This document shows positions 9,471 to 10,736 of a stretch of 12,295 nt of DNA, in pieces; position 1 is the stretch's first letter; every line of letters starts with the position of its first letter. The position numbers and the translations under genes were made by a program. The DNA comes from a virus. Taxonomy: Duplodnaviria; Heunggongvirae; Uroviricota; Caudoviricetes. The notes under the pieces were generated by a model, which did no database searches, was not told the origin of the DNA, and worked only from the letters and a program-made list of their open reading frames with translations. The stretch lies in the IMG/VR virus record IMGVR_UViG_2531839233_000006; one strand, given 5' to 3'.

Positions 9471-10736
9471 TTACTGGGCGTAATTCTGTTTCAGTCCACG
9501 GATAAACTGAGATGCAGATGAAGCACTTTCATCTCTGGCCTGTTCCCCCCTGGCCTTTTGAATACGGAGAAAATTCGCATACCCGTTCTCCAGCAATTTC
9601 TGATTCTGAGGTTCCAGCATTTCAGGCTGACGGGCCGCTACATTTCTGGCAAATGACAGCTTGTCAGGATCATCTCCCGCCCAGTTGATAACCTGTTGCT
9701 GAAGTTTTTGTTGCTGAATTTTCTGTTGATGCGGTTGTGAACCAGTCGCAGCATAATATTCATCCACCGCAGCCTGAGCATTACCGCCATTCTTGATCGC
9801 GTCCGCCGCTACGTTGCTGGCCCCCTTCTGAAGCTCTTTCAGAGAAAGTCCCTGCTGCTTCGGCATAAAATAACCATAATTTTTCGATATCTCTGCAAAT
9901 TTGCTGCGATCCCTGACCTGAGCGATAGCCTTATCAACGGGTATCGCCAGCACGGTTTGATCATCAGGGTGCGCACTGCCGTATTCTGTTACAGGTTTAT
10001 GCGCGGTGGAGCCATCGCTGTATGTGAGATCAAGGCCAATAAGTACGTACCCTTCCTGCTGCGCTGGTACGATACTGCCAATCCTGGCCTCTTTTATCGT
10101 TTTGTCCCCGGTTGAATCAGGCATGCCAATACGCTGTTGTAGTTCCGGGGCAAACACGCCGGAAAGCACATCGAGATTTTCCGGGGTATTCAGCGAATCG
10201 ATCGCCATGTCCGGCTTATCACCAAAGATTTTTTGCAGGTTGATCACGGCCTGACCCGCTTTCGCTGCATAGCCTTCGTTTGACATAAGAATTAATGGAT
10301 GTCCCTTTGGCAGCTGCCCGAACAGACGCGTTGCAGCCTCCTGATCGCCAGCCTCAATTGCTTTTCCAAGCGCTTCCATTAGTGGCTGGCTATGGGCAAT
10401 CATATCGTTATACTCAAGCCGTCGCTGGTTGTATTTCTGCAACTGGAGTCGCTGCTGCTCCATACCCAGTGACGCATTCCGGTAATTCTGGTTAGCGTTA
10501 AACTCCCTCTCCTTCAGTGCATAATTACGGTCGTCAACTTTGGCTCTGTAATCAAAGTTCCGCTGATCAACGTTTTTATTATGTTCAAACTGAGACTGCG
10601 CAAACTCAAAATCGCGCTCGTTATTTTTCTGTTGCCGGGCAAGCTGTGCTTCACGCAGACCAAGCTCCTTACGACGGGTCATTGCCTGGTCAACGGTGCT
10701 GAATCCGGCAAGTAACCCCTGTGCAAATCCGCTCAT
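9471..10736 (-). CDS. Hypothetical protein (421 aa), Gln/Asn/Arg-rich with degenerate aromatic repeats; candidate ejection/internal-virion or scaffold-like protein
   Basis: Complete ORF with AAGGAG Shine-Dalgarno 6 nt upstream of the ATG at 10734-10736. It starts 8 nt after the stop of the upstream gene. N-terminal third has repeats such as ERDFEF/QRNFDY/DRNYAL/EREFNA; C-terminal region has a QQKIQQQKLQQQ run. No catalytic motif recognised. Confidence 0.75.
   Translation of the reverse strand: MSGFAQGLLAGFSTVDQAMTRRKELGLREAQLARQQKNNERDFEFAQSQFEHNKNVDQRNFDYRAKVDDRNYALKEREFNANQNYRNASLGMEQQRLQLQKYNQRRLEYNDMIAHSQPLMEALGKAIEAGDQEAATRLFGQLPKGHPLILMSNEGYAAKAGQAVINLQKIFGDKPDMAIDSLNTPENLDVLSGVFAPELQQRIGMPDSTGDKTIKEARIGSIVPAQQEGYVLIGLDLTYSDGSTAHKPVTEYGSAHPDDQTVLAIPVDKAIAQVRDRSKFAEISKNYGYFMPKQQGLSLKELQKGASNVAADAIKNGGNAQAAVDEYYAATGSQPHQQKIQQQKLQQQVINWAGDDPDKLSFARNVAARQPEMLEPQNQKLLENGYANFLRIQKARGEQARDESASSASQFIRGLKQNYAQ

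Follow-up and report, generated by a model that had tools for sequence, protein, structure and literature searches.

An 18-residue apolar register marks a predicted long helix in the 421-aa protein of the Stx2 phage 933W

Alpha-sheets and alpha-cylinders, such as those of the TolC tunnel and of the P22 portal barrel, are formed by alpha-helices that carry two apolar seams ("bifaceted" helices; Walshaw and Woolfson; Lupas and Gruber). In podophages, the ejection cassettes of T7 (gp14/15/16) and N4 (gp52/51/50) comprise small proteins, a protein of ~400–650 amino acids (aa) and the largest virion protein (PMC8954989, PMC13434306). Ejection proteins are elongated, mostly helical and without a normal hydrophobic core, they oligomerise into channels and are needed for infectivity but not for packaging, and their homologs are recognised by size and synteny, not by sequence (PMC8954989, PMC13434306). 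Here we describe the 421-aa product of the gene L0133/ST933Wp71 (p71) of the short-tailed Stx2 phage 933W (Traversvirus). The DNA analysed is the IMG/VR virus record IMGVR_UViG_2531839233_000006 of 12,295 nucleotides (nt), which shows a part of the 933W late region as its reverse complement; this whole 12.3-kb stretch is called the window, and all coordinates refer to it. The N-terminal third of the protein is predicted to be a helix of ~125 residues, along which pairs of apolar residues recur every 18 residues. This pairing points to helix-to-helix packing, not to the string of small binding modules considered in a preliminary description of the same DNA. We class the finding as a helical stalk, non-heptad and marked periodically, in a protein that probably belongs to the phage virion or to DNA delivery. 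The features of the gene on which the argument depends are as follows.

9471..10736, minus strand: the 421-aa gene L0133/ST933Wp71, 1266 nt, 100% identical to 933W over the whole gene
10404..10673, minus strand: five consecutive 18-residue units, residues 22–111, the true extent of the repeat by 10/10 apolar positions and the family profile
10452..10619, minus strand: the stretch flagged in the preliminary description, residues 40–95, with units 2–4 of the register and the off-register DRNYAL at residue 69
10353..10727, minus strand: continuous alpha-helix predicted by AlphaFold2, residues 4–128
10680..10736, minus strand: N-terminal apolar segment MSGFAQGLLAGFSTVDQAM with G3, G7 and G11 (GxxxGxxxG), G7 and G11 being kept in at least 90% of 30 homologs

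Since the 18-residue register spans residues 22–111, the feature is wider than the stretch originally flagged. When the five units are written below one another, each carries an h-x-h doublet (two apolar residues, h, one residue apart) at register positions 4 and 6.

Unit 1, from residue 22 (RKELGL...): RKELGLREAQLARQQKNN, apolar pair L25/L27
Unit 2 (ERDFEF...): ERDFEFAQSQFEHNKNVD, apolar pair F43/F45
Unit 3 (QRNFDY...): QRNFDYRAKVDDRNYALK, apolar pair F61/Y63
Unit 4 (EREFNA...): EREFNANQNYRNASLGME, apolar pair F79/A81
Unit 5 (QQRLQL...): QQRLQLQKYNQRRLEYND, apolar pair L97/L99

Positions 4 and 6 were apolar in 10/10 cases (best-phase shuffle p = 5e-5), and no other period from 5 to 25 exceeded an occupancy of 0.75. 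The periods and patterns were partly picked after the data had been inspected; by our own estimate, correction for the inspected periods and offsets leaves a p of roughly 1e-2 to 1e-3 for the register. Over residues 37–96, the apolar residues showed periods of 9 (p = 0.0003) and 18 (p = 0.0003 to 0.002), and periods 7, 8 and 10 were not significant (period 7, p = 0.31). Period 7 was weak in this protein alone over residues 29–118 (p = 0.04). Period 11 gave p = 0.12–0.28 with the residue sets FYW and FYWLIVMA, and p = 0.035 with FYWLIVM in residues 37–96. The additional element DRNYAL at residue 69 follows unit 3 by 11 residues, or three helical turns; it shares the helix faces of the doublets without keeping to the 18-residue register.

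The structure of the protein was modelled with AlphaFold2 from a 30-sequence alignment of diverse homologs. The model (mean pLDDT, the predicted local distance difference test, of 81) places residues 4–128 in one continuous helix, with block means of 84–92 over residues 31–80 and 73–78 over residues 81–100. By our own estimate this helix would be ~19 nm long if straight, at 1.5 A per residue. It is followed by a further helical region, a small beta domain (residues 213–266) and C-terminal helices. The model of the homolog P0148, which is 20% identical, is helical over residues 2–135. Proline is depleted about twelve-fold in the helix region among 29 homologs (0.49 vs 5.8 per 100 residues). Since 18 residues make five turns of a helix with 3.6 residues per turn, and 9 residues make two and a half, the h-x-h doublets generate two apolar seams. 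By this geometry these run ~160–200 degrees apart along an otherwise polar rod rich in R, N, Q, D and E. The apolar residues occupy ~5/18 positions, and the paired ones are largely aromatic in 933W. The N-terminal tip of the rod bears the GxxxGxxxG segment, which is better conserved than any other sequence motif in the N-terminal part; its apolar positions 4, 5, 8, 9, 12 and 15 are conserved as well. GxxxGxxxG and glycine-zipper segments are typical of tight helix packing or of membrane-active segments.

An exhaustive HMMER search for relatives of the 421-aa protein recovered only 66 clusters at 50% identity; the full-length members are mostly 380–580 aa long, and one has 1386 aa. Across this family the polar helix sequence is poorly conserved, and in the nearer homologs no units but the first two (DRNFxLAQxQFxY...DQRxFxY) can be recognised. 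Conservation is seen in apolar columns on two sides of the helical wheel, at ~320–340 degrees (query positions 25, 32, 43, 50, 61, 79, 86 and 97) and at ~160–200 degrees (27, 45, 52, 63, 81, 88, 92 and 99), and the same columns are kept at 20–30% identity. The mean apolar power spectrum of 30 homologs had a single dominant peak at period 2.25, with a power of 3.43 compared with 1.83 for the 99th percentile of shuffle maxima, and no peak at 3.5–3.67. Since 2.25 is an alias of 1.8, which is half of 3.6, the peak indicates an unsupercoiled helix with two opposite faces. When 47 non-redundant homologs were scanned without alignment, the mean z was highest at periods 18 (1.15) and 9 (1.01), and it was 0.06 at period 7 and -0.16 at period 11. 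Runs of at least four exact 18-spaced doublets were found in 7/45 homologs, and every other period from 7 to 25 yielded 0–2 such cases. The independent lineages P0148, P0164, P0173 and P0157 have four exact 18-spaced doublets each, formed by different residues; the run reads ELGL/DYGL/KYGL/VYNL in P0148 and ELGL/NFDL/DFEY/TIAI in P0164, both distant members. The exact 18-residue register is thus present in a minority of homologs only, and the two-seam geometry, as read from these alignments and scans, appears to be family-wide.

These properties resemble those of bifaceted helices. The spectral peak at 2.25, the apolar columns at ~330 and ~180 degrees and the 18-residue register all correspond to two seams; with 18/5 = 3.6 residues per turn the helix would be nearly straight, and two opposite seams imply two neighbours. 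The helix differs from bifaceted helices in its low content of apolar residues and in that no structural match was found, the likeness being drawn from sequence geometry and a monomer model. Foldseek searches of the models of the 421-aa protein and a homolog against the PDB gave no match with E <= 0.001, and a search of one model against BFVD returned family members only. In the monomer model the long polar helix stands alone, as in single alpha-helix (ER/K) domains. Such a domain was rejected on three grounds: the charged fraction is 0.35, there are 3 opposite-charge i,i+4 pairs compared with 5.7 +/- 2.0 expected, and the apolar seams are conserved. A canonical heptad coiled coil was also rejected on the family mean z, which is close to zero at period 7 as compared with 18, and on the missing 3.5 spectral peak. 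A period of 2.25 is also that of an amphipathic beta-strand, but this was judged an unlikely origin of the signal, as the phase holds over ~90 residues, the region is depleted of proline and AlphaFold2 predicts a helix with confidence.

The tape measure proteins of long-tailed phages are likewise long helical virion proteins that take part in DNA delivery, with aromatic residues marking one face. They have a conserved W/F every 11 residues, and a mixed 11-11-18 pattern has been reported (PMC3271669). The 421-aa protein differs from them by its period of 18 (7+11), its h-x-h doublets and its two seams, and it has five units with no variation in unit number seen. Membership was rejected: 933W and Sp5, the Stx2 phage of Sakai, are podoviruses, and the gene does not lie between tail chaperones and distal tail genes. 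A short-tailed phage, the lack of an 11-residue period and the lack of homology together place the 421-aa protein outside the tape measure family.

The preliminary description had drawn attention to a shorter stretch within this helix. Its location and sequence were correct, since 10452–10619 on the minus strand is residues 40–95 of the 421-aa open reading frame (ORF). It had described recurring (D/E/Q)R(N/D)(F/Y)(D/E/A)(F/Y/L) units spaced roughly 8–10 residues apart. The motif does recur, with three exact matches (ERDFEF at 40, QRNFDY at 58 and DRNYAL at 69) and two looser ones (EREFNA at 76 and NQNYRN at 83), but not at regular intervals: the spacings are 18, 11, 7 and 7, of which 18 and 11 are five and three helical turns, and periods 8 and 10 gave p > 0.85. 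The four-residue core of the motif occurs 3 times compared with 0.07 expected in shuffles, for a pattern that was defined after the sequence had been seen. A pattern-free check of self-similarity supported the repeats only marginally (best 6-residue off-diagonal window p = 0.053, number of good windows p = 0.026). Its best lags of 11, 18, 36, 29 and 22 are all near-integer numbers of alpha-helical turns. Fourier analysis of the aromatic, R and N/D positions in the single sequence was mostly not significant. At the nucleotide level, Tandem Repeats Finder detected no repeat and the sole outcome of a repeat search was a weak 28-nt pair that has no relation to the units, so a recent tandem duplication is rejected. 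Alignment of sub-segments (halves) of the family profile with hhalign revealed no significant repeat; with probabilities of 0.4–12%, homologous internal repeats are not demonstrable. A conserved repeat phase in homologs was not borne out: the nearer homologs share the sequence of the first two units alone, and it is the apolar helix faces that are conserved more widely. The segment is nevertheless periodic, helical and non-globular, as the preliminary description had supposed. The ordinary coiled coil that it named as the alternative does not fit, as the family signal is strongest at periods 18 and 9 and ~0 at 7 and 11. R-(N/D)-(F/Y) represents the local sequence surrounding the apolar seams and no independent module, and for annotation the flagged repeats are a helix-face periodicity, not a new family of binding repeats.

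For the function of the protein we turned to the published genetics of its counterpart. We equate the 421-aa protein with Sp5 ORF79 (ECs1241), judging from size, position and the near-identical sequence of the deletion primer. The late region of Sp5 has been described as highly conserved among Stx2 phages, and ORF79 is a 421-aa hypothetical protein encoded directly upstream of the 2793-aa ORF80 (PMC5155283). An in-frame deletion of ORF79 yielded neither plaques nor lysogens and was complemented in trans, and DNA was still packaged in a DNase-resistant form in heads that look normal (PMC5155283). The ORF79 and ORF80 mutants have the same phenotype, and mutants of ORF76 show strongly reduced infectivity (PMC5155283). 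The essentiality of the gene is already known; what is new is the structural code and the testable hypothesis that results from it.

The gene is the fourth in a cassette whose order of transcription is p68 (218 aa), p69 (148 aa), p70 (83 aa), p71 (421 aa) and p72 (2806 aa), and which lies beyond the tail-fibre and lom genes, with p71 immediately before the gene for the polyvalent protein p72.

11457..12113, minus strand: ST933Wp68, 218 aa, conserved cassette member, same size and position as Sp5 ORF76
11008..11454, minus strand: ST933Wp69, 148 aa, conserved cassette member by gene order
10747..10998, minus strand: ST933Wp70, 83 aa, with a C-terminal glycine zipper and the RefSeq label "bacteriocin", adjoining the 421-aa gene upstream
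1020..9440, minus strand: ST933Wp72, the 2806-aa polyvalent protein, counterpart of the essential Sp5 ORF80

The same order of p68, p69, p70, p71 and the giant ORF is found in Aeromonas phage phiARM81mr, in which the genes are annotated "putative virion structural protein". A search for related loci with the alignment of a 7-sequence subgroup showed the five-gene order in every phage or prophage locus of IMG/VR that was inspected, except for one truncated copy. p72 is recognised as a polyvalent protein by its Pfam domains LPD38 (aa 2489–2694), LPD5 (1064–1213), LPD1 (1374–1453) and MuF_C (1763–1852). Proteins of this type are proposed to be packaged and delivered with phage DNA (PMC5512222). 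The head and portal module of 933W is related to that of the Bcep22-like podophages, which have a comparable giant DarB-like protein in the virion morphogenesis module (PMC9144972). In p70, the Pfam Gly-zipper_YMGG family matched with E = 9e-6, below the family cut-off. Probably the label "bacteriocin" is mistaken and p70 is a partner protein of the virion or a membrane-active one.

The layout of the 933W cassette is like that of T7 gp14/gp15/gp16, N4 gp52/gp51/gp50 and P22 gp7/gp20/gp16, and the Sp5 genetics partly fit a need for infectivity and not for packaging. p71 belongs to a conserved cassette and adjoins the giant gene, as ejection proteins adjoin that of the largest virion protein. 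There are differences: in 933W four proteins, not two, lie upstream of the giant one, and the Sp5 deletion mutant is reported without tail-fibre labelling, which is atypical for ejection proteins. Taken together, the best explanation, which we hold with moderate confidence, is that the helix serves as an oligomerising stalk and that the 421-aa protein is a DNA-delivery (ejection-type) or tail-associated part of the virion. The two seams would be helix-helix contact surfaces, by which the rod could pack side by side with two neighbours, either its own copies or partner proteins, in a non-supercoiled assembly, and its GxxxGxxxG tip would provide additional tight packing of helices or contact with a membrane. 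More weakly, gene context and the published genetics suggest that the DNA-delivery apparatus of 933W/Sp5 virions includes this protein. Like T7 gp15 or N4 gp51, to which it compares in size and position, it might then be of the ejection type and act together with the small proteins encoded upstream and with p72, and its stalk might build or extend a conduit across the cell envelope. A more specific version, which is speculative and to which we give a small chance, is an alpha-helical barrel of ~19 nm without supercoiling and with ~9–12 staves (cf. the TolC tunnel and the P22 portal barrel). It would assemble after ejection, with the GxxxGxxxG tip and p70 in the membrane, as a trans-periplasmic conduit for the 933W DNA and the 2806-aa protein. 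If this were true, the ejectosome would have an architecture unrelated in sequence to those of T7, P22 or N4. The matter is of interest as short-tailed Stx phages spread Shiga toxin genes. The ~125-residue two-seam helix, the conserved glycine-zipper cap and the five-gene cassette ending in a polyvalent protein make up a concrete structural hypothesis for the essential Sp5 ORF79 and ORF80, which lack an assigned function, and it can be tested in the existing Sp5 deletion and complementation system.

Several observations weigh against the ejection-type stalk. Mutants of the classical ejection proteins of P22 or T7 keep their tails. The particles of the Sp5 ORF79 deletion were not labelled by an anti-tail-fibre antibody, which led the authors to assign ORF79 and ORF80 to "tail formation", with roles unknown (PMC5155283). 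Searches by PDB sequence profile, by Foldseek against the PDB and in BFVD revealed no sequence or fold likeness to solved ejection proteins. A search of the literature on Stx-phage virion proteomics and cryo-electron microscopy found no data on the 421-aa protein, and the text of a 2025 proteomics study of enterohaemorrhagic Escherichia coli phages names only capsid, fibre and one structural protein. The packing of the seams is deduced from sequence geometry, the structure from AlphaFold2, that of a monomer, has a pTM (predicted template modelling score) of 0.47, and the 2.25 period is shared, as mentioned, with amphipathic beta-strands. In the P0148 model the helix is broken at residues 68–72, with pLDDT values of 57–66 nearby, so that a hairpin or kink instead of one rod is possible. 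The exact register is kept by a minority of homologs, and the homologs are mutually related, which makes the family statistics supportive and not independent.

Several other explanations were weighed against the stalk. The protein might be a fixed tail component or a tail-assembly factor, such as a coiled-coil stalk, a plug or a fibre-anchoring hub, whose helix is an oligomerisation stalk and which stays on the particle without being ejected. The phenotype of the ORF79 deletion, with packaged DNA, normal-looking heads and no tail-fibre labelling, and its published assignment to tail formation would agree with such a part (PMC5155283), and the 421-aa gene is located downstream of the tail-fibre genes. 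However, the negative immuno-electron microscopy was obtained with a phage whose tails are only occasionally visible even in the wild type (PMC5155283), and lom and other non-structural genes separate the 421-aa gene from those for the tail fibre. The gene is also tightly linked to that of p72, a member of a class whose injection has been proposed. Tail needles and fibres often contain long helical stalks, but these are typically heptad coiled coils, and the heptad signal is absent in the family. Likewise, loss of a P22-type plug releases the DNA, whereas the DNA of the ORF79 deletion remained DNase-resistant. We consider a fixed tail part possible but rather unlikely. The second functional alternative is a packaging or scaffold adaptor, whose rod would bind and organise either p72 or the small proteins of the cassette within the head, with no channel role of its own. 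Its strict adjacency to the giant ORF in the related loci that were examined and the shared phenotype of the ORF79 and ORF80 mutants are compatible with this, as is the 1386-aa homolog P0143 with its long C-terminal extension. The conserved glycine-zipper N-terminus and the glycine-zipper partner look more membrane- or channel-active, and an adaptor has in our view only a slim chance of being correct.

Two further alternatives concern the pattern itself. It could have arisen by chance in a compositionally biased, generic coiled-coil-like helix, in which case the periodicity would have no specific significance. This would agree with the marginal self-similarity, the mostly insignificant single-sequence Fourier peaks, the absence of the exact register from most homologs and the partly retrospective choice of periods and patterns. 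It is hard to reconcile with the family-averaged spectrum, in which the two-face signal is far above shuffles, with the prominence of periods 18 and 9 in the alignment-free scan, with apolar columns that persist at 20–30% identity, and with four lineages that retain four exact doublets in different residues; chance is thus highly unlikely. The least probable explanation is the one proposed in the preliminary description, namely that independent short repeats form repeated helical hairpins or modules for binding peptidoglycan or nucleic acid. It is true that R-(N/D)-(F/Y) is commoner than in shuffles and that arginine and aromatic residues are typical of ligand contacts. The hairpins, however, find no place in the model, in which residues 40–95 are mid-way in one uninterrupted helix; the stretch is free of predicted turns and contains no proline and only two glycines. 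The spacing of the units corresponds to whole numbers of helical turns, and the motif sequence is not conserved past the nearer homologs. Pfam, NCBIfam and PHROGs gave no domain match beyond a family of unknown function, and searches by sequence in the PDB and by fold in the PDB and BFVD likewise detected no such binding module.

The 421-aa protein is annotated in 933W as a "hypothetical protein" and falls in PHROG 601, of unknown function (E = 1.6e-213), which was the only match in Pfam, NCBIfam and PHROGs; no Pfam or NCBIfam family was above threshold, and a sub-threshold LTM match of 16 residues was dismissed as noise. A literature search under the name L0133 gave no match. One further feature is supported by the predicted structure and the family alignment.

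9939..10100, minus strand: small beta domain, residues 213–266

The best-conserved motif of the family, VTYxDGSTAxKPVTExxSxxxDD (residues 235–262, 9951–10034 on the minus strand), lies inside this predicted domain. A PDB sequence-profile search with the protein gave a best E of 0.25 with an unrelated protein; this match, a 19-residue likeness of VTYxDGST to a Rib-domain surface protein (6s5w, strand "VTYPDGS"), was not significant.

Some minor observations were made on the neighbouring genes and on variant copies of the cassette. The ORF called mechanically for p68 (11457–12188, minus strand) begins with TTG and encodes 243 aa, and the annotated p68 and Sp5 ORF76 have 218 aa, with the ATG at 12113. 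A PHROG 611 match over residues 27–242 of the 243-aa ORF supports the shorter, 218-aa p68. p70 also gave weak PHROG matches to tape measure and internal virion proteins. p72 contains two HExxH motifs, HEWFH at aa 1297 (5538–5552) and HEIIH at aa 1564 (4737–4751); before this, a predicted AAA+ ATPase domain (COG1483) was all that had been linked to its counterpart ORF80. In the metagenomic homolog P0137 (compare L025, 5731–7329), the N-terminal 55 residues of a p70-like protein are joined to a p71-like protein whose C-terminus is out of frame. This is probably a deletion or defective copy, and it joins the two glycine-rich segments directly. P0143 (1386 aa) has ~1100 extra C-terminal residues with no Pfam match and may be a p71-like protein fused to the start of the downstream giant protein.

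In at least 7 Stx2a prophage records, the 421-aa gene is broken near codon 81, within the repeat region, by a transposase ORF of the IS3-family type, as assigned by eye, which leaves only residues 82–421 contiguous. In one of them (L003, LC616032.1 53935–57954), this lies at ~640–1486, equivalent to position ~10494 of the window. If the gene is essential as in Sp5, these interrupted prophages are predicted to be non-infectious. Just past the giant ORF, 125–469 on the plus strand encodes a YgiW/YdeI-type BOF OB-fold periplasmic protein (Pfam BOF, E = 3.9e-33). It lies on the strand opposite to the virion genes and is likely a lysogenic-conversion or moron gene.

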